Origin: an uncultured Chloroflexia bacterium
Lineage (GTDB): Bacteria; Chloroflexota; Limnocylindria; Limnocylindrales; CSP1-4
Assembly: GCA_963697135.1 (NCBI GenBank)
Contig: CAVOMZ010000007.1
Span: 209,110 to 273,109 of the forward strand
Length of the DNA stretch: 64,000 nt
Direction of reading: 5' to 3'
The notes under the pieces are model-generated. The model was not told where the DNA came from and did not search any database. It saw nothing but the letters and a program-made list of their open reading frames with translations. Positions within the stretch are counted from its first letter, which is position 1. Each line of letters begins with the position of its first letter. The translations under genes and the position numbers were made by a program. Below are positions 2,405 to 18,348 of this stretch, in pieces.

Positions 2405-3484
2405 TCAGCCTGAGCGCGGGTCTCCGCGTTCGTTGGCCAGCCGCTCGGCGAGGCGGACCTCGCGCTCCCGGATCGCGGCGACCTGGGGCGCGACCCGGGC
2501 GTCGATCGCCGCCGTCTGGCGCTCCTCGTGCCGGAGCAGGCCACCCAGGATCAGCATCACCGCCAGCATGAACACGACGTCGCCGGTGATCCACATGATC
2601 CCGCCGGCCAGCCGCTGGTCGTCGATCACGCTCGGTCCCCAGGTCCGGACCTGGTTCACGTAGTGGGCGTACAGCGGGACCGCGGCGCTGTACGAGGACG
2701 ACCCCCAGGAACGTGTTCTGGGGCATCTGCAGGAACGTGTAGACCAGGCGATGGGGATGGCGCATCCGCCACGGGGTCGGATCGATGCCGACCGCCGGTC
2801 CACCAGAAGAGGAGGGCCGTGATCAGGAAGCCGGCATGCTCGAGCTGGTGGACGAACGGGTTCTCGAGGGCCAGCTCGAACAGGCTGCGAGAAGTGGGCG
2901 ACCCACATGTAGCCGGCGAACAGGATCCAGGTGACGACGGGGAACGAGATCGCCCGGAGGATCCGCGAGTGGAGGACCGGCAGGATCCAGCGCCGGCGGA
3001 CCTCCGGGCGGGAGAAGCGCAGGAGCAGGGTGATCGGGGCGCCGAGGACCAGGAGCGGCGCCGCGACCATCGTCAGGAGCACGTGCTGGACCATGTGGTC
3101 GCTGAACAGGGTCGAGTCGTAGGCCTCGATCGGCGACTGGAGGGCGATCTCGATCGCCAGCAGGCCGAGCAGCCAGCAGGCGAGCCGGATCCCCCGGACA
3201 TGGCTCAGCGGATGGGCCGCGTTCACCCGCCGGACCATCCACAGGTAGCCGACCGCGGCGAGCACGAGGGGCACGACGATCGTCGGGTCGAACGACCAGA
3301 GGAACAGGACCGAGGGCAGGCTGGGTGGCGGCGGGGGCGTGCCCGAGTGGGCCGAGGCAGCGCCGGCGAGGCCGAGCCAGGCGAGCGAGGCGAGGCCGCC
3401 TCCGGCGATCAGCGACGGCAGGCGGGCACCGAGGCGCTTCGGCGGGCGGCTCTGGCGAGAGCGGAAGCGACCATCTCGGGCCAT
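2405..3484 (-). CDS. ctaG: Cytochrome c oxidase assembly factor CtaG (Caa3_CtaG family). Frame-shifted near 2700-2880.
   Basis: Polytopic membrane protein with HMVQHVLLTMVAAPLLVLGAP and a C-terminal YAHYVNQVRTWGPSVIDDQRLAGGIMWITGDVVFM. Divergent to the cox operon. The homologous frame continues in ORFs 2405..3484 and 2823..3542. Confidence 0.65.
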   Translation of the reverse strand: MARDGRFRSRQSRPPKRLGARLPSLIAGGGLASLAWLGLAGAASAHSGTPPPPPSLPSVLFLWSFDPTIVVPLVLAAVGYLWMVRRVNAAHPLSHVRGIRLACWLLGLLAIEIALQSPIEAYDSTLFSDHMVQHVLLTMVAAPLLVLGAPITLLLRFSRPEVRRRWILPVLHSRILRAISFPVVTWILFAGYMWVAHFSQPVRAGPREPVRPPARACRLPDHGPPLLVDRRSASIRPRGGCAIPIAWSTRSCRCPRTRSWGSSSYSAAVPLYAHYVNQVRTWGPSVIDDQRLAGGIMWITGDVVFMLAVMLILGGLLRHEERQTAAIDARVAPQVAAIREREVRLAERLANERGDPRSG

Positions 3485-3635: not shown

Positions 3636-4727
3636 ATGTCGAACCCCACGCCCCGGTCGCCAGGCAGCAACTGGCTGGCGTTCGCCTTCCTGGGCGGGGT
3701 GCTGGCCCTGATCGCCGGGCTGATCTGGGCGGTCCTGGCGGGCAAGCTCGAGCCGCCGGCGCCGGTCACGACCGAGGCCCAGGCCACCCGCGACCTGTAC
3801 AACTTCGTCTTCGTCGTGGCCGCGGTGATCTTCCTCTTCGTCGAGGCCCTGATCGTCTTCGCGGTCATCCGCTACCGGCGCAAGCCGACCGACACCGAGC
3901 TGCCGCCGCAGATCCACGGCAACAGCCTCCTCGAAGTCCTCTGGACGGTCATCCCGACGATCCTCGTCGTGATCCTGTTCATCTTCTCGTGGAACACCCT
4001 CAACACGGTCGATGCGGTCTCGCCGGCCCCGGCCCTGACCGTGCGGGCCGTGGCGGCCCAGTTCGAATGGGAGTTCGACTACCTCGCCCCGGACGGCCAG
4101 ACGGTCCAGTTCCGACAGCAGACGCCCGAGCTCGACCTGCCGGTCGGGGTGGACGTCCACGTGATCCTCCGCTCGAACGACGTGATCCACGCGTTCTACG
4201 TCCCGAAGTTCCTGTTCAAGCGGGACGTCGTCCCGGGCCTCGAGAACAACTTCGACTTCACGATCGATCCGGCCGACGTCAACCAGACCTTCCGGGGCCA
4301 GTGCGCCGAGTTCTGCGGAACGTTCCACAGCACGATGCTGTTCTCGGTCAAGGCGCTCAGCCCGACCGACTTCAACACCTGGCTGCAGAATCAGATCAAG
4401 ACCGCGGCGGCCACGCCGGCGCCGGCGCCATCGGGTGGCGGGACGGCCGCCACGACCCTCGACCTGACCGCCCACAACATTGCCTACGACACGTCTTCGC
4501 TCGCGGCGCCGGCTGGCCAGCCGTTCATCATCAACTTCACGAACAACGACCCGAGCGTGCCCCACAACGTCCAGATCGCCGACGGAACCGGCCAGGTCAT
4601 CTTCAAGGGCGAGCTCGTGACCGGCCCCGACCATCGCCAGTATCCGATCCCGGCCCTGGCGGCCGGCACCTACACCTTCTCCTGTTCCGTTCACCCGCAG
4701 ATGACCGGAACGCTCACGGTCAAGTAA
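3636..4727 (+). CDS. ctaC: Cytochrome c oxidase subunit II with an additional C-terminal type-1 copper (cupredoxin) domain
   Basis: Two N-terminal TM helices. CuA site H..CAEFCGTFHSTM. C-terminal extension ...PHNVQIADG...CSVHPQMTGTLTVK (H, C, H, M ligands). Start ATG 3636 is in frame within ORF 3339..4727. Confidence 0.85.
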   Translation: MSNPTPRSPGSNWLAFAFLGGVLALIAGLIWAVLAGKLEPPAPVTTEAQATRDLYNFVFVVAAVIFLFVEALIVFAVIRYRRKPTDTELPPQIHGNSLLEVLWTVIPTILVVILFIFSWNTLNTVDAVSPAPALTVRAVAAQFEWEFDYLAPDGQTVQFRQQTPELDLPVGVDVHVILRSNDVIHAFYVPKFLFKRDVVPGLENNFDFTIDPADVNQTFRGQCAEFCGTFHSTMLFSVKALSPTDFNTWLQNQIKTAAATPAPAPSGGGTAATTLDLTAHNIAYDTSSLAAPAGQPFIINFTNNDPSVPHNVQIADGTGQVIFKGELVTGPDHRQYPIPALAAGTYTFSCSVHPQMTGTLTVK

Positions 4728-4736
4728 GGAGCACTG

Positions 4737-6353
4737 ATGGCGACGACGACGCTGCGGGCGGGAGTGGGCTATCGGACCGGGCTGTACGAATGGCTGACCA
4801 CGACCGATCACAAGAAGATCGGGATCCTGTATCTCGCCAACTCGATCCTGATGTTCCTGCTGGGCGGCACCTTCGCCCTGGTCGTCCGGGTCGAGCTGGC
4901 CCAGCCGGGGCTCCAGTTCCTGACCGACTCCCAGTACAACCAGGCGTTCACGATCCACGCCTCGCTGATGCTCTTCCTGTTCGTCATCCCGGTCCTGGCC
5001 GGCTTCGGCAACTACCTCGTGCCGCTGATGATCGGCGCGCCGGACATGGCCTTCCCGCGGATCAACGCCTTCTCGTTCTGGCTGCTGCCCCTCGGCGCGA
5101 TCGTGATGCTCTCGGGCTTCGCCACCGGGACCGGGGCGGCGGCCGCCGGCTGGACCGAATACAGCCCGCTCGCCCAGGCGAAGTACTCGGGGATCGGGAC
5201 CGACCTGTGGATCGTGGCCCTGCTGCTGATCGGCACGAGCTCGATCCTCGGCTCGATCAACTTCATCGTCACGATCTTCAAGATGCGGGCGCCGGGGATG
5301 ACCCTGCTGCGGATGCCGATCATGGTCTGGACGATGCTCGTCACCAGCATCCTGGTCCTGATGGCCACGCCGGTCCTGACCAGCGCCCTGATCATGCTGT
5401 TCATCGACCGGAACCTGGGCGGCCACTTCTTCGACCCGGCCACCGGCGGCAACGCGATCCTGTGGCAGAACACGTTCTGGTTCTACTCCCACCCGGCCGT
5501 CTACATCATGATCCTGCCGGCGATGGGGATCATCAGCGAGATCCTGCCGGTCTTCAGCCGCAAGCCGCTCTTCGGCTACAAGGCCTTCGTGTTCGCGACG
5601 GCGGCCATCGGCGCCCTGGGCTTCTCGGTCTGGGCCCACCACATGTTCACGACCGGGGCGGTCTACCTGCCGTTCTTCAGCTTCATGACCTTCCTGATCG
5701 CGATCCCGACCGGGGTCAAGTTCTTCAACTGGATCGCCACGATGTTCCGCGGCCAGCTGACGTTCTCGACGCCGCTGCTGTACTCGCTCGGCTTCCTGAC
5801 GATGTTCCTGATCGGCGGGATCAACGGTGCCTTCAGCGCGGCCGTGCCGGTCGACTTCGCCCTGCACGACACGTACTGGGTCGTGGCCCACATCCACTAC
5901 GTCCTGTTCGGCGGCTCGGTCTTCGCGGTCTTCGCCGGGCTGTACTACTGGTGGCCCAAGATGTTCGGCCGGAGGCTGAACGAGACCCTCGGCAAGATCC
6001 AGTTCGTGTTCATGTTCATCGGCTTCAACCTGACCTTCTTCCCGATGCACATCCTCGGCCTGAGCGGGATGCCCCGCCGGATCGCCGACTATGACCCGAC
6101 GGCCGGCTGGAACGACCTGAACCTGCTGGCGACGATCGGCGGCTTCGTGATCGCCTTCAGCATCGTGCCCTTCCTGTGGAACGTGTTCATCACGTTCCGG
6201 TCGGGCGAGCCCGCCGGCGATGATCCCTGGGAGGGCAACACGCTCGAGTGGGCGACCTCCTCGCCGCCGCCGCCCTACAACTTCGATCACCTCCCGGAGA
6301 TCCGCTCCGAGCGCCCGGTCTTCGACGCCCGCCATGGGGCGAGCCACGCGTGA
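4737..6353 (+). CDS. ctaD: Cytochrome c oxidase subunit I (heme-copper oxidase, aa3 type)
   Basis: 538 aa, 12-TM COX1 signature throughout (WFFGHPEVY-like ...FYSHPAVYIMILPAMG, HHMF, HDTYWVVAHIHYV). Confidence 0.95.
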   Translation: MATTTLRAGVGYRTGLYEWLTTTDHKKIGILYLANSILMFLLGGTFALVVRVELAQPGLQFLTDSQYNQAFTIHASLMLFLFVIPVLAGFGNYLVPLMIGAPDMAFPRINAFSFWLLPLGAIVMLSGFATGTGAAAAGWTEYSPLAQAKYSGIGTDLWIVALLLIGTSSILGSINFIVTIFKMRAPGMTLLRMPIMVWTMLVTSILVLMATPVLTSALIMLFIDRNLGGHFFDPATGGNAILWQNTFWFYSHPAVYIMILPAMGIISEILPVFSRKPLFGYKAFVFATAAIGALGFSVWAHHMFTTGAVYLPFFSFMTFLIAIPTGVKFFNWIATMFRGQLTFSTPLLYSLGFLTMFLIGGINGAFSAAVPVDFALHDTYWVVAHIHYVLFGGSVFAVFAGLYYWWPKMFGRRLNETLGKIQFVFMFIGFNLTFFPMHILGLSGMPRRIADYDPTAGWNDLNLLATIGGFVIAFSIVPFLWNVFITFRSGEPAGDDPWEGNTLEWATSSPPPPYNFDHLPEIRSERPVFDARHGASHA

Positions 6354-6983
6354 GCGCCGAGCCGATGGCCCTCCAGGTCAGCCACGACGACGCGGGCGGC
6401 CACGACGAGGAGGGGATCAGCAACGTCATCCTGGGGATGATCCTGTTCATCTGCTCGGAGGTGATGTTCTTCGCCGGGCTGTTCGCGGCCTACTTCAACG
6501 TCCGGGCGAACGCGCCGGTCTGGCCGCCGGAGGGCAATCCGCACTTCCACCTGGCCAACGAGATCACCCTGCCCCTGATCATCACGATCCTCCTGATCAT
6601 CAGCTCCTTCACCTGCCAGCTGGCGGTCTGGTCGATCCGCAAGGGTGACCGGGCCGGCCTGATCCGGAACATCGCGGTGACCCTGACCCTGGGGATCATC
6701 TTCCTGCTCGGCCAGGCGCTACGACTACACCCAGCTCGGGTTCACCCTGGCCGACGGCACCTTCGGCACGACGTTCTTCACCCTGACCGGCTTCCACGGC
6801 GCCCACGTCCTGGGCGGAGCGATCATGCTCAGCGTCGTCCTCTACCGCTCGCTGGCCGGGCAGTTCTCGGCCAGGCACCACGACATGGTCGAGGCGGTCT
6901 CGCTCTACTGGCACTTCGTGGACGTGGTCTGGATCGTCCTGTTCTCGCTGCTGTATCTCGTGCCGGCCGCGGCGGCCCACTGA
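6350..6983 (+). CDS. ctaE: Cytochrome c oxidase subunit III. One frame shift near 6717-6721.
   Basis: GTG at 6350 overlaps the ctaD stop. ...ICSEVMFFAGLFAAYF... continues after a 1-nt slip as YDYTQLGFTLADGTFGTTFFTLTGFHGAHVLGGAIML...HFVDVVWIVLFSLLYLVPAAAAH*, stop 6981-6983. Confidence 0.8.
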
Positions 6984-6997
6984 CGGAAGGCGGTCAG

Positions 6998-7174
6998 ATG
7001 CACCCGATTCCGCATCCGCGCCTGGCCCTCCTGAGCGGGCTCCTGTTCGCCGGCGTCGGGCTCGTCTACTACGCCTTGAGCCATGACATCGGGGGCGCCT
7101 CGATGGAGATCATCCTGGGCATCGCGATGAGCCTGATGTTCTACGTCCTGATGGCCGGCTCCCCGCGCGGCTGA
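6998..7174 (+). CDS. Small two-TM membrane protein, putative oxidase subunit IV-like
   Basis: MHPIPHPRLALLSGLLFAGVGLVYYALSHDIGGASMEIILGIAMSLMFYVLMAG. Sits directly after ctaE in the operon. Hydrophobic, 58 aa. Confidence 0.4.
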   Translation: MHPIPHPRLALLSGLLFAGVGLVYYALSHDIGGASMEIILGIAMSLMFYVLMAGSPRG

Positions 7175-7202: not shown

Positions 7203-8285
7203 ATGGACCAGATCTGGACCTCACTCATCAACTTCATTGCCCAGTTCGTGTCGCCCGACTGGGGCAAGGTGATCGGGCTCCTGCCACTCATGCTCCTGGC
7301 CCTCGTGGGCCTCTATGGCGTCTGGCTCGTCCGGAGCCTGGCCCTGCTCGGGCCGGCCCAGCGCGGCGGCCGTCCGCTGCCACCGCTGCCGCCCGCCGGG
7401 ATCCACATGCCGGGACCGTCGCTTGCCCCGGCCTTCGGGGCGCTCGGGTTCGGCCTCGTCGTCTGGGGCCTGGTCTTCCGGGCGATCCTGCCGATCGGCC
7501 TGATCGTGCTCGTCCTGGCCCTGCTCTACTGGCTGCGCGAGGGAATGCGCGATTACGACCACATCGAGCCGACGAAGGTGATCCTGCCGGCGGTAATTCA
7601 CGATGGTCCCCCGCCCGGCGTCCACATGCCCGGGCCGTCGTTCCGGCCGATCCTGGGCGGCCTGTCGATGATGGTCATCGTGTTCGGCCTGGTCTTCGGC
7701 TGGGCCCTCTTCGTGGCCGGGCTGCTGATGCTCGGGGCAACCCTGCTCGGCTGGCTGCGCGACGCCCGGACCGAGTACAGCCTGACCGTGGAGGCCGATC
7801 GCACCGGCCACCTCCGGAACGCCCCGGCGCCGCACTACCCGAGCGGAACGCTGACGTTCTTCGCGGTCGTCCTGATCGGGGCGATCCTGGTCAACTTCGG
7901 GATCATCCCGCCGGGCAGCTCGAGCGGCGGGACGGCCGGGGCCAGTGGAGCACCCGGGGCGAGCGGCTCGCCCGGCGCCAGCGCCGAGCCCAGCGGGGTC
8001 GCGGCCGACGTCACGATCGGGGCCAAGAACATCGCCTACACCCCGAACAAGGCCGACGCGCCGGCCGGCCGGGCCTTCACGATCGCCTTTGACAACCAGG
8101 ACGCCGGGATCCCCCACAACATCTCGATCCAGACCGGGGGCGCCGGCAGCCAGCAGGTCTTCCTGGGCAAGATCGTGACCGGGCCGGTCGTCGAGATCTA
8201 CAACGTGCCGGCCCTGCCCGCCGGGACATACACCTATGTCTGCTCGGTTCATGCCACCATGACCGGGGTCCTGACCGTCAAGTAG
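7203..8285 (+). CDS. Membrane protein with an internally duplicated TM module and a C-terminal cupredoxin (type-1 Cu) domain
   Basis: Repeated GIHMPGPSLAPAFGALGFGLVVWGLVF / GVHMPGPSFRPILGGLSMMVIVFGLVF modules. Gly/Ser/Ala linker. C-terminus PHNISIQTG...CSVHATMTGVLTVK, paralogous to the COX2 C-terminal domain. Confidence 0.75.
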   Translation: MDQIWTSLINFIAQFVSPDWGKVIGLLPLMLLALVGLYGVWLVRSLALLGPAQRGGRPLPPLPPAGIHMPGPSLAPAFGALGFGLVVWGLVFRAILPIGLIVLVLALLYWLREGMRDYDHIEPTKVILPAVIHDGPPPGVHMPGPSFRPILGGLSMMVIVFGLVFGWALFVAGLLMLGATLLGWLRDARTEYSLTVEADRTGHLRNAPAPHYPSGTLTFFAVVLIGAILVNFGIIPPGSSSGGTAGASGAPGASGSPGASAEPSGVAADVTIGAKNIAYTPNKADAPAGRAFTIAFDNQDAGIPHNISIQTGGAGSQQVFLGKIVTGPVVEIYNVPALPAGTYTYVCSVHATMTGVLTVK

Positions 8286-8300
8286 CCGGGCCCGATCACC

Positions 8301-8900
8301 ATGGAACCTCGTCCGGATGCCGCTCCCGAGCCTCGTCCGGACGCCGCTCCCGTGAGCCGCCGGTCCCGCCATCTCCGCCCCCTGGCCGTCCTGGCGGTCA
8401 TCGTCGTCGTGGCCCTGGCCGGCTGGGCGATCCACGATGGATCCGGCTGCGCCTCGGCCGAGCCGACCGGGATCGCCGCGGCGGAGCCGGGCCAGCCGGC
8501 CCCGGCCCTCGTCGGGACGACCCTCGACGGGCAGCCATTCGACCTCGCCGCGGAGCGCGGCCGGCCGGTCATCGTCAACTTCTGGGCGTCCTGGTGCGTC
8601 CCCTGCCAGGCCGAGTTCCCGCTCCTCCAGGCGGCCCAGGCGGCCCACGCCGCCGATGGCCTGGTGGTCGTCGGGGTGATCTACCAGGACACCTCGTCGG
8701 CGGCCAAGGCCTTCGCTGCGAGCCATGGCGGGACCTGGATCAACGTGGCCGATCCGTGCGGCAGCATCGCCACGGCCTACACCGTCGTTGCCCCGCCCCA
8801 GACCTACTTCATCACGGCCGACGGCGTCCTGAAGTCGCGCCAGATCGGCGAGATCACCGAACCCGACCTCGAGCGGCAGCTGAGCGCGATCCTGCCCTGA
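8301..8900 (+). CDS. TlpA/ResA-like thiol-disulfide oxidoreductase (thioredoxin fold)
   Basis: N-terminal TM, then IVNFWASWCVPCQAEFP (WCxPC active site). Last gene of the cox cluster. Confidence 0.8.
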   Translation: MEPRPDAAPEPRPDAAPVSRRSRHLRPLAVLAVIVVVALAGWAIHDGSGCASAEPTGIAAAEPGQPAPALVGTTLDGQPFDLAAERGRPVIVNFWASWCVPCQAEFPLLQAAQAAHAADGLVVVGVIYQDTSSAAKAFAASHGGTWINVADPCGSIATAYTVVAPPQTYFITADGVLKSRQIGEITEPDLERQLSAILP

Positions 8901-11782: not shown

Positions 11783-13258
11783 CTAGTGGCGGCGCCGGCG
11801 GAAGCGCTCCCACAGCTGGCGGGTCTTCTCCTTGTGGGCGAAGGCCCAGCCGATCAGGATCAGCAGGATGAAGTCGACCGTGCCCGCTCCGGCGGCGCTC
11901 AGGTAGCCGAGCTGCTGGCCGATGTCGCCCCCGATCTGCAGGGCCGGAATCGTGGCCCCGACGAGGCCCAGGGCGAAGAACGGCGGTTGGGGGGCCAGGT
12001 TGGCCCGGACGCTGGCGGTGATCACGCCGGTCGCGGTGGTCCCCCCGACGAGGAACGCGTTCGAGCCGCTGGCGAGGCCCGATGAGCCGGTCAGGCCGCC
12101 GCTGCTGGCCGGCAGGTCGCTCTGGCTCAGGTGCTGCCAGCCGCTGATGTTGCCGCTCGCGTCTGGCGTGGTCCAGTAGGTCTCGGTCTGGGGGCTCGTC
12201 CCGTCGCTGCCGCCGACCAGGTAGATCACCCCGTTCGAGGTGAATCCGGCGGCGTTGGTCCGGGGAGCCGGCAGGTTGGTGGCGCCCACCCCGGTGCCCC
12301 AGCGCTGGACCACCACGGCCGCGGCCGCGCCCGAAGGCAGGGGCGAGGGCGCCGGCGAAGCCGACGCCGCAGACCCGGTGTCGGCCCGCAGGACGACGGC
12401 GGTCGGGCCGGTCGCGTCACGCCCGCCGTACATGAACAGCTCGCTGCCGATCACCGAGCCGAGGGCCTGGCTGCGCGGCTGGGGCATCGCGATCTGGTTG
12501 GTCCAGGGCAGGAGCTTGCCGGTCGGGTCGGCGGTCGCCTTCCAGACGGTCGAGGTCGGGCCGCTGCCATCCGTCCCGCCCAGGACGAACAGGCCGTCCG
12601 AGGCGGCGACGACCGTGGCCGAGGCCCGCGGGGACGGCAGGACGAGGTCCTTGCTCTCGGAGAATTCGGCGAACTGGTTGGTCGCGGCGTCCTGGGCCGA
12701 GACGAAGACCGTCGAGGTCGGCTTGCCGTCGCTGCCGAAGCCGCCGATCACGTAGATCGTGCTGTTGAGGAAGATCACGGCCGCATCGGCTCGCGGGGCC
12801 GGCAGCTTGAGCGGCGAGGTCTGCCATGGGCCGAACGTGCCGCTGAACAGGGGCGTCGTGTAGATCTGGTCGGAGACGTTCGTGCCGTCCGTGCCCCCGA
12901 TGTAGAACAGGTTCGTGCCGGCCTGGATCACCGTCCCGTCGGTTCGCGGGGCGGGCAGGGCCAGCTCGGTCGGCGAAGGCTGCCAGGGCAGGGGCGCCCC
13001 GGCCGGAGCCGGGCAGGGCAGGGTCTCATTGCTCGGCGGGCAGAGGTTGATCGGGGAGATGACGTTGACCCCGACATCGATCGTCGGGAAGACGATGAAG
13101 TAGTAGGCCCGGTCCGGGATATAGCCCAGGAGCATGATGATCGTGACGAACCAGAAGGATGCCTTCAGGAACGCCCAGGTCCAGCCCTCGCCGTCGAGCA
13201 GCCCGAACAGGACCCGTCCCCGTCCAGGGCTGCCCGCGTTGAGCGTCTGTCCCGCCAT
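11783..13258 (-). CDS. Kelch-repeat beta-propeller membrane protein with N-terminal and C-terminal TM segments
   Basis: Repeated ...LPAPRxxAAxx...LFVLGGTDGSGPTSTV... blades (at least five). The N-terminal TM is FWFVTIIMLLGYIP. The C-terminal anchor is VDFILLILIGWAFA. Confidence 0.75.
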   Translation of the reverse strand: MAGQTLNAGSPGRGRVLFGLLDGEGWTWAFLKASFWFVTIIMLLGYIPDRAYYFIVFPTIDVGVNVISPINLCPPSNETLPCPAPAGAPLPWQPSPTELALPAPRTDGTVIQAGTNLFYIGGTDGTNVSDQIYTTPLFSGTFGPWQTSPLKLPAPRADAAVIFLNSTIYVIGGFGSDGKPTSTVFVSAQDAATNQFAEFSESKDLVLPSPRASATVVAASDGLFVLGGTDGSGPTSTVWKATADPTGKLLPWTNQIAMPQPRSQALGSVIGSELFMYGGRDATGPTAVVLRADTGSAASASPAPSPLPSGAAAAVVVQRWGTGVGATNLPAPRTNAAGFTSNGVIYLVGGSDGTSPQTETYWTTPDASGNISGWQHLSQSDLPASSGGLTGSSGLASGSNAFLVGGTTATGVITASVRANLAPQPPFFALGLVGATIPALQIGGDIGQQLGYLSAAGAGTVDFILLILIGWAFAHKEKTRQLWERFRRRRH

Positions 13259-13303: not shown

Positions 13304-14371
13304 CTACTTGACCGCGAGCGTTCCCGTCATGTTCGGGTGGACCGCGCAGTGGTACGTGTACGCCCCGGCCGGCAGCGCCGGCACGCTGTAGTCCTTGGTC
13401 GCCGGGCCGTTGAAGATGTCGCCGGTAAAGACCGTCGAGCCGCCCGAGTTGACGATCACGACGTTGTGCGGGACCGAGGCATCCATGTTGTTGAACTGGA
13501 GGTCGAAGGCCGTGTTGGCCGGGGCCGCCAGCGTCGTCTGGGTGAAGGCGATGTTCTGGGCGTCGAGCTTGACCACCGTCTCGCCGGGGGCCGGGGTGGT
13601 GGCCGGGGTGCTGGCCGAAGGCGAGCTGGTCAGGGCCGAGCTCCAGCAGGCCGGCACCGGGGTCGCCCCGGGTGGCGGGGCGTAGTTCGGGTCGCGCCAG
13701 CCGTTGAACGTCTCGGGCTTGCCGTTCGGACCGATCACCGGTTCATTCGTGCTGGCGTCCCGGACCTGGTAGGTCATCGTGCTGGGCGCCCGGATGAAGT
13801 CGATCAGGTTCTGGATCTGGATGTAGTTCAGCGGCCCGCCGTTGATGTCGGCCCAGACCGGCATGAGGCTGTCGGGGTTGCCGCAGACGTAGCGGCCACC
13901 CACCGTCAGGACGTTCTGGATGTACTGCGGGTTCAGGTGGACGTAGAGCTTGATCTGGCTGTTCAGGACCGGCCCGATTCCGCCCTGGCCGGCGGCTCCG
14001 TGGCAACGGGCGCAGTTTGCCTCGAACAGGTTGTAGCCGGCCTCGACCGAGGTGACCTGCTGGGCCGCGACCTCGGCCTGCTGGCGGGACGAGTTGGCCA
14101 CGCCCGGAAAGCCCACGTCGTAGAACCAGTACAGGATCACGAAGACGACGACGAAGAGGGTCGCCAGGAAGCCGACCCAGCGGGCGCTACCGCTCTGGCG
14201 GACGATCCCGGCGGCCCGCTCCGGGGTAAGCGCCGCCTGGTGGGCCGAAGGTGGAGCAGAGAACCGTTCGACCGGGGCCGGCGTGCTTTCGGGGCGGGCG
14301 GCCGGCAGTCGTTCGTCGCCGCCCGAGGGCGTCGGCAGGGAGTCGTTCGGGCCGCTCATGCTCACAGGCAC
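13304..14371 (-). CDS. Membrane-anchored mono-heme cytochrome c fused to a C-terminal cupredoxin domain
   Basis: TM FLATLFVVVFVILYWF. Heme motif CARCHGAAGQGG. C-terminal VPHNVVIVNSGG...CAVHPNMTGTLAVK, paralogous to the COX2 C-terminal domain. Last gene of the bc operon. Confidence 0.85.
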   Translation of the reverse strand: MPVSMSGPNDSLPTPSGGDERLPAARPESTPAPVERFSAPPSAHQAALTPERAAGIVRQSGSARWVGFLATLFVVVFVILYWFYDVGFPGVANSSRQQAEVAAQQVTSVEAGYNLFEANCARCHGAAGQGGIGPVLNSQIKLYVHLNPQYIQNVLTVGGRYVCGNPDSLMPVWADINGGPLNYIQIQNLIDFIRAPSTMTYQVRDASTNEPVIGPNGKPETFNGWRDPNYAPPPGATPVPACWSSALTSSPSASTPATTPAPGETVVKLDAQNIAFTQTTLAAPANTAFDLQFNNMDASVPHNVVIVNSGGSTVFTGDIFNGPATKDYSVPALPAGAYTYHCAVHPNMTGTLAVK

Positions 14372-15038
14372 CCCGTCGGCGACAGGGGCGGGATCAGGCC
14401 CGGCTGGCCGAGCGCCACGGGCAGCGGCCCGAGGGTGATCTTGAGGGTGTCGACCGACAGGGCGCCGGAGCCGTCGACCACGGTCGCGAAGCGGTCCATG
14501 CTCCGCGGGGCCGGGCCGTACTGGGCGACCCAGCGCCTTGATCCCGAGCCGGTCATAGCGCGAGCCGTGGCAGGGGCACTCGAACCAGAAGTTCTTGAGG
14601 CACGGGTTGGGCTTGCAGCCGAGGTGCGGACAGCGCTGGTAGAGCGCCCGGACGTTGATGTTGGTCCCGTCTCCGGTCGCATCCTGCGCCCGGCAGGAAC
14701 TGCTGGCGCGAGGTGTCGATCAGCATCACGTAGGCCTTGGCCGCGCTGTAGTAGGCCGGGAAGCCCTTGTCGATCGGCAGGCTCGAGTTCTGGGCCTTCA
14801 CGTCGGAGAAGGTCCCGATCAGGACCTTGCTCTTGTTGCCGGTGGCGATCGCCGGCCAGATGAACCCGATCGTGCCCACTCCGAGCTCGGTCAGCCACAT
14901 CGCGACGCCCAGTCCGAGGGCCGTCCGCAGGACCTTTCGGCGCGGGATGCCCTTGACCTGCTCCTTCCGAAGGGCCTTGATCGCCTCCTTGGAAAGGGCC
15001 TGGGGCCGCGCCGCCGGTTCGACCTGGTAGTTGCTCAT
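14362..15038 (-). CDS. Rieske [2Fe-2S] protein of the cytochrome bc/b6f complex. Two frame shifts near 14530 and 14700.
   Basis: The N-terminus MSNYQVEPA...RRKVLRTALGLGVAMW has a Tat-like RR signal plus TM. My own translation of the reverse complement of 14560-14660 gives VRALYQRCPHLGCKPNPCLKNFWFECPCHGSRYDR (both Rieske boxes), in a third frame relative to the flanking ORFs. Confidence 0.8.
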
Positions 15039-15060: not shown

Positions 15061-15663
15061 TCACAGGCTGAAGTGCAGCCCGTCGGTGTTGAGATAGGGA
15101 ATGACGAAAGCGTAGCCGGGGCCCCGGAAGAAGATCCCCACGAAGGTGACCGTCAGCCCGAGGGCGCAGAACATGCTGAACAGGATGATCGCCGTCTTGC
15201 GCTGGGAGGGCCGGGTGGCGGTCAGGTTGCCCCGGTCGACGTACGGGATCAGGGCCGCCCCGACCAGGACGAAGGTCGGCACGAGCACGCCCGCCACGGT
15301 CGGGTGGAAGTACGACAGGAGCTCCTGCAGGCCGAGGAAGTACCAGGGCGCCTTGGCCACCGCCGGGGTCACGTTCGAGTTGGCCAGCGCCTCGAGCGGG
15401 GCATTCACGAAGAGGCCCATCAGGAGCAGGAAGATCGACATGATCCCGCCGGCCAGGAACTCGATCGTGAGCAGGTGCGGCCAGGTCATGACCGTGTCGT
15501 CCGGCTCCTTCTGGACGCGGACGACGGCATCCTGCTTGACCAGGGCCAGCAGCCGATACGGCCGGGCCGACATCGGCACGCGCTGCTTGTCGATCTCGGT
15601 CCGACGGGCCGGATCGACCGGCACGACGGTCCGCGGCTCGGGCGGCGTCTTCACGTCAGTCAT
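15061..15663 (-). CDS. Cytochrome b6f subunit IV-like protein (C-terminal half of a split cytochrome b)
   Basis: Three TM helices and the PEWY-type motif KAPWYFLGLQELLSYF. Confidence 0.85.
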   Translation of the reverse strand: MTDVKTPPEPRTVVPVDPARRTEIDKQRVPMSARPYRLLALVKQDAVVRVQKEPDDTVMTWPHLLTIEFLAGGIMSIFLLLMGLFVNAPLEALANSNVTPAVAKAPWYFLGLQELLSYFHPTVAGVLVPTFVLVGAALIPYVDRGNLTATRPSQRKTAIILFSMFCALGLTVTFVGIFFRGPGYAFVIPYLNTDGLHFSL

Positions 15664-15787: not shown

Positions 15788-16516
15788 TCATAGCGGTCCC
15801 GAGATTCCTCCGTCCTTACGGATTCGCCAGAAGTGCACGGCGAGGAATATGGCGGCGACGAGCGGGAAAACCATGATGTGCAGGACATAGAACCGCAAGA
15901 GCGTGTTCTGGCCGACCTCCAGGCCGCCCAGCAGGATCAGCTTGGCCGGGGTGTTGAACAGCGGGGCGTAGCCGCCCATGTTCGTGCCGATCGTGATCGC
16001 CCAGTAGGCGATCTGGTCCCAGGGCAGGAGGTAGCCCGTGAACGAGAGCATCAGGGTGACGAACAGGAGGACGACCCCGACGACCCAGTTGAACTCGCGC
16101 GGCGGCTTGTAGGCCCCGTGGTAGAAGACCCGCATCATGTGCAGGAAGACGAAGAAGACCATCAGGTGGGCTGCCCACCGATGGATGTTCCGGGTCAGCA
16201 GGCCGAAGGCGACCTCGCTCTGGATCGACAGGATGTTCGAGTAGGCCTGGGTCGCCGACGGAACGTAGAAGAACATCAGGTAGACGCCGGTCACGGTCAG
16301 GACGAGGAACAGGAAGAAGCTCAGTCCACCGAGGCAGAACGTGTAGGCGAACTTGACCGCGTGCTGGCGGACGCGGACGGGGTGGATGTGCAGGAAGACG
16401 TTGTTCATGACCGCGTACGCCCGCGAACGTTCGTCGTTCGGGTAGGGCTGGCGGAAGAGCGAGCGCCACACGACGCTCCGGCGGATGCTCTGGTCCACCC
16501 GCTCGAGGAAGCTCAC
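15788..16516 (-). CDS. Cytochrome b6-like (N-terminal heme-binding half of a split cytochrome b)
   Basis: The two conserved heme-ligand His pairs sit in ...NIHRWAAHLMVFFVFLHMMRVFY... and ...VLHIMVFPLVAAIFLAVHFW. The ATG overlaps the stop of the upstream flavoprotein gene (ATGA). Confidence 0.9.
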   Translation of the reverse strand: MSFLERVDQSIRRSVVWRSLFRQPYPNDERSRAYAVMNNVFLHIHPVRVRQHAVKFAYTFCLGGLSFFLFLVLTVTGVYLMFFYVPSATQAYSNILSIQSEVAFGLLTRNIHRWAAHLMVFFVFLHMMRVFYHGAYKPPREFNWVVGVVLLFVTLMLSFTGYLLPWDQIAYWAITIGTNMGGYAPLFNTPAKLILLGGLEVGQNTLLRFYVLHIMVFPLVAAIFLAVHFWRIRKDGGISGPL

Positions 16517-18348
16517 CGGGATCCTCCTGCCACGCCGGCGGTTCCGGCGAGTTGCGCATCACGGTAGGACTCCTTGTAGAGCCGGCCGTCGCTCGAGACC
16601 TCCTGCAGCTCGAACCGCTCCATCGTAATGGCGTCGAACGGGCATCGCTTGACGCACAGGGCGCAGCGGATGCAGCGCTCCTCGTCGAGGACCATGGCCG
16701 CCCCCTGGCTCCAGCCGTAGGCCTCCTCGACCTCGGGCAGGAGGCCCTCGCTCTTGAGCTGGTTGATGTCGACCATGTGGATGACGCCCTCGGGGCAGAC
16801 ATCCGCGCAGGCACCGCACAGGACGCAGCGGAACGGGTCGAACCAGATGTTGAAGTTGCACATCAGGCAGCGGGTCGACTCGGCCACGGCCTGGTTGGCG
16901 GTGTAGCCCAGCTCGACCGGGGTGGTGAAGTTGACCGTGGGGTCGGCCGAGGGGATCCGCGTCTCGACCGGGGCCATGGGAATGTGCTGGCGGGGCAGCA
17001 CGTCGTAGAACTCGGGCATGTCGTGGCGCCACGAGCTGGTGATCTTGACGTTGGCCGCGACGCTCACGTCGGTCCGTCCGGTCAGGTAGCGGTCGATCGC
17101 GTAGGCGCACTTCTTGCCGTGCCCGGCCGCCTCGATCAGGGTCGTCGGGCCGGTCACGAAATCGCCGCAGGCGAAGACGCCCCGGACGTTCGTGGCGTAC
17201 GTCGCCGGATCGACCTTGACCCGGCCGCGGTTGATCTCGAAGCTCGCCTCGACCGGCAGGAAGGTGAGATCGGCCGCCTGGGACACGGCCGGGATCACGG
17301 TGTCTGCCTTGATCTCGAACTCCGAGCCGGGGATCGGCACGGGCGAGCGCCGGCCGGAGGCGTCCGGCTCGCCCAGCCGGTTGCGGATGAAGCGGACCGC
17401 GCTGACGTGGCCGTCCTCGCCGATCACCTCGATCGGGCTGGCCAGGAACTCCATCCGGACGCCTTCGCGCTCGGTCTCGCCCAGCTCCTCCTCGTCGACG
17501 ACCAGCTCGGAGCGGGTCCGGCGGTAGACGATGGCGACGTTCTCGGCGCCGTGGCGAAGGCTCGTCCGCGAGCAGTCCATGGCGGTGTAGCCGCCGCCGA
17601 TCACGACGACGTCGCGGCCGACCTCGAGCTCCTGGCCGAGGTTGGCCAGCTTCATGAAGTCGACCCCGTACTGGACGCCTTCCAGGTCGCCTCCGGGCAC
17701 GTCGAGGGCGACCGCGTCCATCGCTCCGGCCGTGATCGAGATCGCGTCGAAGTCGCGCTGGAGCTGCTCGAAGGTGATGTCCTTGCCGATCGTCGTGTTG
17801 AACACGAATTTCGCGCCGAGCTGCTCGACCAGGCGGATGTCCATCTCGATCGCTTCGCGCGGCAGGCGGAAGGCGGGGACCCCGATCAGCATCGTCCCGC
17901 CGCCGTAGGGCAGGCTGTCGAAGACGGTCACCTGGAAACCCTTGAGCGACAGCTCGCGAGCGACGGAGATCCCGGCGGGTCCGGCCCCGACCACGGCGAC
18001 CCGCTCGCTCCGGGGGGTGATCGCCGGGATCACATCCGGAATGCCCGAGGCCTCGTGCCACTCGACCAGGAAGCGCTTCATCGCCCGAATCGCCAGCGGC
18101 CGGTCGATGTCCCCTCGCCGGCAGGCTCGCTCGCAGGGGGCCGAGCAGACATACGAGCACATCGCGGCGACCGGATTCGGGTCGCGGCTGAGGATGTAGC
18201 CCTCCTCGAACCGGCCTTCGGCAGCGAGGTTGAGGTAACCCCGGCAGTTCGTGCCGACCGGACATGCCTCCTGGCACTCGATGTTGCACTGGAGCCATGA
18301 CGCGTCGACGGGCTGAACGAGGAATTCCTGGTTCGGGTCGATGGCCAA
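16513..18348 (-). CDS. GltD/dihydropyrimidine-dehydrogenase-like FAD/NAD(P)-binding oxidoreductase with N-terminal and C-terminal iron-sulfur (4Fe-4S) cysteine clusters
   Basis: N-terminal Cys cluster CNIECQEACPVGTNC...CSYVCSAPCERAC. Dinucleotide fold VAVVGAGPAGIS and VVVIGGGYTAMD. C-terminal ferredoxin motifs CVLCGACADVCP and CIRCALCVKRCP. Confidence 0.8.
   Translation of the reverse strand: MAIDPNQEFLVQPVDASWLQCNIECQEACPVGTNCRGYLNLAAEGRFEEGYILSRDPNPVAAMCSYVCSAPCERACRRGDIDRPLAIRAMKRFLVEWHEASGIPDVIPAITPRSERVAVVGAGPAGISVARELSLKGFQVTVFDSLPYGGGTMLIGVPAFRLPREAIEMDIRLVEQLGAKFVFNTTIGKDITFEQLQRDFDAISITAGAMDAVALDVPGGDLEGVQYGVDFMKLANLGQELEVGRDVVVIGGGYTAMDCSRTSLRHGAENVAIVYRRTRSELVVDEEELGETEREGVRMEFLASPIEVIGEDGHVSAVRFIRNRLGEPDASGRRSPVPIPGSEFEIKADTVIPAVSQAADLTFLPVEASFEINRGRVKVDPATYATNVRGVFACGDFVTGPTTLIEAAGHGKKCAYAIDRYLTGRTDVSVAANVKITSSWRHDMPEFYDVLPRQHIPMAPVETRIPSADPTVNFTTPVELGYTANQAVAESTRCLMCNFNIWFDPFRCVLCGACADVCPEGVIHMVDINQLKSEGLLPEVEEAYGWSQGAAMVLDEERCIRCALCVKRCPFDAITMERFELQEVSSDGRLYKESYRDAQLAGTAGVAGGSR

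Follow-up and report, generated by a model that had tools for sequence, protein, structure and literature searches.

How do electrons enter a haem-copper oxidase whose subunit II carries a second copper domain at its C-terminus? The question is raised by a stretch of 64,000 nucleotides from an uncultured Chloroflexia bacterium of the Limnocylindria (Chloroflexota), all of which was analysed and is referred to here as the window. On the forward strand of the window, coxB (3636..4727) encodes a subunit II of 363 amino acids with a C-terminal type-1 copper cupredoxin, as identified by Pfam matches to COX2_TM, COX2, and Cupredoxin_1 and by a database match. Two kinds of built-in electron entry are known for A-family oxidases: caa3 oxidases have a cytochrome c fused to them, and actinobacteria use a dihaem QcrC bridge. 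Blue copper proteins that donate electrons are known in free and in lipid-anchored form. The protein from the window is probably the subunit II of an A-family (aa3-type) oxidase with a tethered type-1 copper carrier, which would relay electrons from a cytochrome bc complex to the CuA centre.

The open reading frame of coxB is uninterrupted over 363 codons and starts with an ATG behind a GAGGAAG-like ribosome-binding site. A longer frame from a GTG at 3339 is mechanically possible; however, the 363-residue form has the same length as a database protein from a 417-kb contig (P0001), which is 100% identical to the coxB product, and homologues are 353–393 residues long. The N-terminal 250 residues pass the NCBIfam CoxB model TIGR02866 with 174.2 bits (cutoff 147.7), and Pfam identifies COX2_TM (PF02790) at residues 46–119 (E 9e-13; 48.7 bits, cutoff 22.8) and COX2 (PF00116) at residues 166–240 (E 6e-14; 52.3 bits, cutoff 22). 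The nearest named NCBIfam model is aa3_CtaC_Actin (NF050117), of which the protein is not a member, its score being 199.8 bits and the cutoff 250. The two canonical transmembrane helices of subunit II (residues 46–125; 3771..4010) are formed by residues 46–79 and 98–125 in the AlphaFold2 model and are preceded by a signal or anchor helix at residues 13–37. The CuA domain (residues 131–250; 4026..4385) contains the motif CAEFCGTFHSTM and the complete set H...C-x-E-x-C-x3-H-x2-M, made up of H185, C223, E225, C227, H231, and M234. The conservation of ligands was evaluated in 78 subunit II homologues with 52–79% identity: the five CuA ligands H185, C223, C227, H231, and M234 are invariant, and E225 is conserved in at least 90% of the sequences. 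Subunit II lacks a CxxCH motif, and Pfam finds no cytochrome c domain in it, which sets it apart from caa3-type proteins. In most homologues, the N-terminus (3636..3750 in the window) has a lipoprotein-box cysteine (LAGC) after the first helix. The N-terminus of the protein from the window reads LIAGLIWAVLAGK and has no cysteine, because of which its N-terminal helix may be retained as an uncleaved anchor.

The C-terminal extension (residues 271–363; 4446..4724) is a cupredoxin that is conserved and has all four ligands of an H/C/H/M site. Cupredoxin_1 (PF13473) matches residues 271–362 with an E of 1e-11 (45.2 bits, cutoff 27), and Copper-bind (PF00127), the family of plastocyanin and azurin, reaches 20.5 bits with a cutoff of 21.2; some of the homologues have a precomputed PF00127 match. 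The type-1 motif reads PHNVQIADG...CSVHPQMTGTLTVK, and the ligands are encoded by nucleotides 4563–4565 (H310), 4683–4685 (C350), 4692–4694 (H353), and 4701–4703 (M356). All four ligands are invariant in the 78 homologues, and the arrangement C350-x2-H353-x2-M356 corresponds to the loop spacing of amicyanin. Among the protein sequences of the PDB, amicyanins match the domain with an E of about 6e-6, so that PHNV aligns to MPHNV and CSVHPQM to CTPHPFM. The four ligands thereby align to H53, C92, H95, and M98 of amicyanin. The N-terminal half of the fused cupredoxin matches Roseiflexus auracyanin (6KOL) and Chloroflexus auracyanin A. The domain is not an amicyanin itself, as indicated by the score of 26.3 bits against the cutoff of 110.2 for the amicyanin equivalog TIGR02657, and no mau gene context was seen in the cox operon. 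The type-1 site is predicted to be occupied by copper.

The AlphaFold2 model of subunit II, calculated from the alignment of the 78 sequences, has a mean predicted local distance difference test score (pLDDT) of 89. Residues 271–363 form an eight-stranded beta-sandwich, in which the mean pLDDT values of ten-residue blocks are 89–97. The result of a Foldseek search of the PDB with the full model was dominated by subunit II chains and contained no independent match to the C-terminal domain. Because of this, the model of a 50%-identical paralogue encoded at 7203..8285 was used for the fold search described below. The cupredoxin is connected to the CuA domain by a low-complexity linker (residues 251–270; 4386..4445) of roughly 20 amino acids, in which Ala, Pro, Gly, Ser, Thr, and Gln are abundant, with a block-mean pLDDT of about 50 at residues 261–270. 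The length of the linker is variable, and the distance from W249 to A279 ranges from 28 to 54 residues across the 78 homologues. Since the linker is both of low complexity and variable in length, it suggests a mobile tethered carrier, a swinging shuttle, and not the rigid docking of caa3 oxidases. The mean identity of the homologues to the protein from the window is 67% in the CuA domain, 65% in the transmembrane helices, 61% in the cupredoxin, and 50% in the linker. Judged from the value for the cupredoxin relative to those for the CuA domain and the linker, the fused domain is under constraint comparable to that on the catalytic parts.

These results agree with most of an earlier sequence-only reading of the same DNA. 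It had described a normal module of two transmembrane helices and CuA, which is corroborated by Pfam, by the CoxB model, and by the presence of all CuA ligands, with the addition of the extra N-terminal helix. It had also recognized, after a linker, a second cupredoxin fold with a complete H/C/H/M site, and had proposed that this part would match cupredoxin-family profiles, would be predicted to fold as a cupredoxin, and would recur in subunit II homologues. The Cupredoxin_1 match above the cutoff, the invariant ligands, the confidently predicted beta-sandwich, and the survey of homologues given below bear this out. Its description of the domain as plastocyanin-like is correct in that the domain is a type-1 cupredoxin; however, the site resembles those of amicyanin and auracyanin rather than that of plastocyanin.

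The position of the extension is the same as that of the fused carrier in caa3 oxidases, as the sequence-only reading had stated. Subunit II of the Thermus caa3 oxidase (2yev_B) aligns to residues 48–270 of the protein from the window, and the remaining roughly 100 residues of the Thermus chain are its cytochrome c domain. According to this alignment, the cupredoxin begins where the cytochrome c domain of the Thermus protein begins.

The fusion is conserved throughout the lineage. Among 5.8 billion clustered proteins, the 120 best homologues all have the combination PF13473, PF00116, and PF02790; those with names are called "cytochrome c oxidase subunit II" and belong to metagenome-assembled genomes (MAGs) of Candidatus Limnocylindrales or Chloroflexota. 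When one genome was scanned for each GTDB species, at least 594 relatives were identified. The best 80 of these loci are all from Chloroflexota-labelled MAGs, and the alignment extends to residue 362–363 in 80/80. A sensitive search of 1.84 billion representatives at 50% identity provided many more full-length fusions with identities of 30–47%. When these divergent fusions were aligned, H310 was invariant and C350, H353, and M356 were conserved in at least 90%. In two of the divergent representatives, P0263 (499 amino acids) and P0265 (458 amino acids), the CuA domain is followed by a tandem pair of cupredoxins. The only divergent cluster with a name is that of the Acidobacteria bacterium MAG RIK09943.1, the locus of which (L081) contains coxB-cupredoxin, coxA, cox4, and coxC in this order; going by this label, the fusion is suggested to extend beyond Chloroflexota.

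Outside these sets, the architecture was not encountered. In the replicons of PLSDB, which are mostly from cultured bacteria, none of the 469 COX2 genes aligns past about residue 255. None of the solved subunit II structures found by Foldseek in the PDB covers the C-terminal cupredoxin, the longest alignment being 278 columns. Neither a fusion of subunit II to a cupredoxin nor one of a bc-complex cytochrome c to a cupredoxin is described in the accessible parts of the literature searched, which included two genomic studies of Limnocylindria and mostly excluded subscription journals. The sequence-only reading had considered that the architecture would be ordinary if it were already widely annotated. 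It is abundant in databases, with thousands of entries and precomputed Pfam matches, yet it is labelled generically, as subunit II alone, and is undescribed in the literature searched.

The domain at the C-terminus of subunit II is one of exactly three cupredoxin domains encoded in the 64 kb, which have pairwise identities of 48–52%. The second is part of a polytopic membrane protein similar to oxidase subunit IV, here called CtaF-like (7203..8285, forward strand; HNISI...CSVHATM), which was recognized from a Cupredoxin_1 match with an E of 5e-10 and a weak Cyt_c_ox_IV match. Most of the homologues listed for this protein have precomputed matches to PF12270 and PF13473, and the gene is located after coxC in every related locus that is long enough. 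In the AlphaFold2 model, a disordered linker of about 35 residues, composed of Gly, Ser, Ala, and Pro, leads to a cupredoxin with a pLDDT of about 95 and the H/C/H/M ligands. Foldseek ranked Roseiflexus auracyanin first among the structures similar to this model, followed by a Nitrosopumilus cupredoxin, amicyanin, the Chloroflexus auracyanins, and plastocyanin, and the Foldseek probability for auracyanin, amicyanin, and plastocyanin was 1.00. The membrane part of the protein contains the sequence G[IV]HMPGPS twice, each copy followed by a helical hairpin, and this repeat suggests that it may be a duplicated half-CtaF.

The third cupredoxin (HNVVI...CAVHPNM) is located in the cytochrome c subunit of a cytochrome bc complex (13304..14371, reverse strand), which consists of one transmembrane helix, a mono-haem cytochrome c domain (CARCH), a linker, and the cupredoxin. 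All 120 best homologues of this protein have PF13473, PF13442, and PF00034, and the names attached to them are "mono/diheme cytochrome c family protein/plastocyanin" or "cupredoxin domain-containing protein". The CARCH sequence is the sole CxxCH in a coding-like frame within the window, and the scan for CxxCH identified no other cytochrome c encoded there. The QcrC model NF050122 gives the protein 26.5 bits with a cutoff of 200, in a weak match to the first haem domain of QcrC.

In all three cupredoxin families, every member retains Cys, His, and Met in its C-terminal loop, spaced as C-x2-H-x2-4-M. The nearest neighbour is a member of the same family for 108 of 112 domains, and identities are 57–61% within and 47–52% between the families. 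A neighbour-joining tree of the three families does not show a clean three-way split, and for this reason the claim is confined to the paralogy of the three domains and does not extend to a dated order of duplication.

The presence of paralogous cupredoxins on the CtaF-like subunit and on the bc-complex cytochrome c supports the role of the subunit II cupredoxin in electron entry. What is shown here comprises the arrangement of the domains, their ligands and fold, their conservation throughout the lineage, the gene context, and the paralogy of the three cupredoxins. Together, these findings suggest an undescribed relay of copper domains between complexes III and IV. In such a relay, a b6c-type complex would oxidise quinol, and its Rieske centre would pass electrons to the single haem c. 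The haem c would reduce the cupredoxin tethered on the same bc subunit, from which electrons would move to the cupredoxin of subunit II, to that of the CtaF-like protein, or to both. The oxidase cupredoxin would then reduce CuA, followed by haem a and the haem a3-CuB site. The fused carrier would be amicyanin- or auracyanin-like, would be located on the outer face of the membrane, the same side as CuA, and would stand in, by position and by role, for the cytochrome c that is fused to caa3 oxidases. What we infer from this arrangement is in which direction and order the electrons move and which cupredoxin contacts CuA.

In organisms that lack an outer membrane, electron carriers are anchored or fused, as in the Bacillus caa3 oxidase and actinobacterial QcrC. 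The cell plan of Chloroflexota has no outer membrane, and tethering of the cupredoxins is consistent with it, because carriers need anchoring in such cells. The potentials of type-1 sites of roughly +200 to +300 mV, as in auracyanin and amicyanin, bracket the potential of CuA. In Chloroflexus, the membrane-tethered auracyanin B has been proposed as the respiratory carrier from alternative complex III (ACIII) (PMC3150298).

The gene for subunit II belongs to an operon with a conserved order: ctaG on the reverse strand, coxB-cupredoxin, coxA, coxC, a gene for a 58-residue protein, the gene for the polytopic protein with a cupredoxin, and that for a TlpA-like redoxin. The order was determined by tblastn on the best 80 loci and is found in every related locus of sufficient length; two longer stretches, L083 and L084, provided further context. 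The Caa3_CtaG-type oxidase assembly factor (2405..3484; Pfam PF09678, E 7e-45) is divergent from coxB and is present in 76/80 loci. The gene coxA for haem-copper oxidase subunit I (4737..6353, forward strand; Pfam COX1, E 1e-164) starts 10 nucleotides past coxB, and the order coxB-coxA is kept in 80/80 loci. The gene coxC for subunit III (6365..6983, forward strand) is read in two frames, with the shift near 6706–6715, and is intact with 203 amino acids in L083. The small two-helix membrane protein of 58 residues (6998..7174, forward strand), encoded between coxC and the CtaF-like gene, has a tblastn match in 52/80 loci and a 58-residue gene call in L083; the profile search identified no family match for it. 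The operon ends with a TlpA-like thiol-disulfide oxidoreductase (8301..8900, forward strand; Pfam Redoxin/AhpC-TSA; 60/80 loci), which probably serves the maturation of the copper sites.

The operon of the b6c-type complex is located on the opposite strand, 8.6 kb downstream of coxB. It encodes a cytochrome b6-type subunit (15788..16516, reverse strand; Pfam Cytochrome_B, E 9e-45), the C-terminal part of cytochrome b, which is a petD-like subunit IV (15061..15663, reverse strand; Pfam Cytochrom_B_C), a Rieske iron-sulfur subunit (14362..15038, reverse strand; CPHLGC...CPCHGS), and the cytochrome c-cupredoxin subunit, the gene for which also comes after that for the Rieske protein in L083 and L084. 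The distance between the bc and cox operons is 7 kb in L083 and about 19 kb in L084 and L005, which are on one contig. No bc genes are present within 8 kb on either side of coxB in the 80 loci, a flank too short to reach them. In the window, two frameshifts spread the Rieske gene over three frames; the gene is intact with 224 amino acids in L083 and L084. The one frameshift in coxC and the two in the Rieske gene, identified by comparison to the intact genes of L083, a relative with a subunit II about 78% identical, are probably indel errors of a long-read assembly rather than signs of pseudogenes, because the neighbouring genes are intact.

Two further genes adjoin the bc operon on the reverse strand. 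One encodes a GltD-like flavoprotein of 611 amino acids (16513..18348) with Fer4_20, Pyr_redox_2, and two 4Fe-4S ferredoxin motifs. It overlaps the start of the cytochrome b6 gene by 4 nucleotides and is directly upstream of cytochrome b6 in L083 and L084; it is possibly a functional partner of the bc operon. The other encodes a Kelch-repeat beta-propeller protein of 491 amino acids with a hydrophobic C-terminal segment (11783..13258); in L083 and L084, too, its gene comes right after that for the cytochrome c-cupredoxin subunit.

The strongest competitor to the relay is that the fused cupredoxin is redox-active in a side branch that connects the oxidase, or the bc complex, to further electron donors and acceptors on the periplasmic side, for example dehydrogenases, metal oxidation, or the Kelch protein, and that the cytochrome c of the bc complex reduces CuA directly. 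Amicyanin-type proteins serve dehydrogenases in known systems; however, the cox operon is without a conserved dehydrogenase partner in the related loci. The candidates for partners are the conserved Kelch protein and the GltD-like flavoprotein, which flank the bc operon. Three paralogous carriers exceed the needs of a linear chain, yet across the lineage the fusion is accompanied by a counterpart cupredoxin on the cytochrome c of the bc complex. The replacement of the entry tryptophan by phenylalanine, described below, also speaks for a side branch, whereas the fusion of the cupredoxin exactly at the position of the caa3 entry cytochrome speaks against it. We consider the side branch unlikely.

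It is far less probable that the fused cupredoxin is a copper chaperone or store that feeds the assembly of CuA or CuB, similar to PCuAC proteins. Cupredoxin-like folds do occur in copper chaperones, and the operon is rich in assembly factors, with CtaG and the TlpA-like redoxin. However, the invariant H...C-x2-H-x2-M is the classical electron-transfer set, unlike the Met/His-rich motif of PCuAC, and the sequence and fold matches of the domain are to electron carriers. Furthermore, the same domain is present on the bc cytochrome c, in a complex without a copper centre to assemble. That assembly or gene calling produced the fusion artificially, with an indel joining two adjacent genes in an error-prone MAG, is conceivable in that coxC and the Rieske gene of the window do contain indels that disrupt the frame. 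This origin is ruled out by the same continuous reading frame in 120/120 of the best homologues, which come from assemblies of NCBI, JGI, ENA, and Logan, and in 80/80 species-level genomes, by the absence of a stop or frame change between the domains, by homologue lengths that cluster at 353–393 residues, and by the invariance of the ligands in the 78 sequences.

Several observations weigh against the copper relay. All of the genomes concerned are MAGs, and the assembly of the window carries the frameshifts in coxC and the Rieske gene. The AlphaFold2 model of subunit II has a predicted template modelling score of 0.71, and its linker is of low confidence. The evidence comes from 64 kb, and soluble carriers, ACIII, or other oxidases are possible elsewhere in the genome. 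The existence of three paralogous cupredoxins makes the exact route of the electrons ambiguous. Finally, the usual entry point to CuA is altered. The reference for the classical electron-entry tryptophan is W104 of the bovine enzyme, and the CuA numbering of the bovine sequence used checks out. The equivalent position in the protein from the window is residue 143 (residues 143–145 are encoded by 4062..4070), which is Phe in 74/78 and Tyr in 4/78 of the Limnocylindria-type proteins. The same position is Trp in 23/26 of the more divergent fusions of subunit II and cupredoxin. W145, the second tryptophan of subunit II, is invariant. The Phe or Tyr at the W104-equivalent position may reflect another mode of docking, or it may count against entry at the usual site.

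The copper relay can be taken further, to the possibility that Limnocylindria run a copper wire between complexes III and IV entirely in cis. The three tethered domains would do the work of the soluble carrier as well as that of the second haem in QcrC, and the complexes would form an obligate bc-aa3 supercomplex or would be connected by swinging arms. The change from Trp to Phe would then represent a docking site of CuA re-designed for a copper donor. We put this extension forward tentatively and regard it as somewhat improbable.

If the copper relay is correct, it would represent a third built-in electron entry for haem-copper oxidases, beside the caa3 fusion and the dihaem bridge. It would also provide a natural cis system for transfer from type-1 copper to CuA, and possibly from one type-1 copper to another, which would be useful for studies of electron transfer between copper sites. 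The relay would explain respiration with very few c-type cytochromes in an abundant uncultured lineage from soil and freshwater, and it implies a high demand for copper. A respiratory feature of the whole lineage is concealed by generic names, namely "cytochrome c oxidase subunit II", "plastocyanin", and "cupredoxin domain-containing protein".

The system shares parts of its organization with several known respiratory chains. The transmembrane helices and CuA core are similar to those of Thermus caa3 (E 1.5e-35; Foldseek rank 2), and in both proteins the carrier domain is C-terminal to CuA, on the outer face of the membrane. In contrast to caa3, the added domain is a type-1 copper cupredoxin without haem c, and it is attached by a variable linker, whereas the interface in caa3 is packed. 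The closest solved subunit II is the mycobacterial CtaC (E 8e-38) from the bcc-aa3 system of Mycobacterium and Corynebacterium. The similarity to this actinobacterial system includes the CtaF (PF12270) match of the extra oxidase subunit and the weak QcrC match of the cytochrome c subunit, and a soluble carrier is apparently unneeded in both systems. However, where the dihaem QcrC has its second haem domain, the subunit described here has a cupredoxin, and its single CxxCH distinguishes it from dihaem proteins. The counterparts of actinobacterial CtaC and CtaF each gain a cupredoxin.

Copper carriers of archaea and acidophiles include the SoxM sulfocyanin of Sulfolobus, the halocyanin of haloarchaea, the plastocyanin-like proteins of ammonia-oxidising archaea, and AcoP and rusticyanin with the aa3 oxidase of Acidithiobacillus. 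As in these chains, some of which are treated in PMC10654088 and PMC7300363, blue copper would replace cytochrome c between enzymes similar to complexes III and IV, and some of the known carriers are membrane-anchored and associate with the oxidase. In these chains, as they are described there, the carriers are separate polypeptides, whereas in the bacterium studied here three paralogues are fused to two complexes. Auracyanins A and B of Chloroflexus and Roseiflexus, which are blue copper carriers from ACIII to the reaction centre or the oxidase, have in common with the fused domain the type-1 copper, the location on the outer face, the proposed function as a carrier from a quinol-oxidising complex, and the phylum neighbourhood (PMC3150298); auracyanin is also the best fold match of the CtaF-like paralogue. 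Unlike the auracyanins, which are separate proteins that function with ACIII, the carriers described here are fused to oxidase subunits and to the bc cytochrome c, and have a shorter loop with amicyanin spacing. The system is best placed outside the caa3, actinobacterial, and amicyanin families, because its sequences have no haem c domain on subunit II, sub-cutoff scores to the actinobacterial models, a QcrC-like subunit with a single haem, and a score far below the amicyanin cutoff. The use of blue copper in place of cytochrome c, fused to the oxidase as in caa3, is an extension of known themes and not a break with them.

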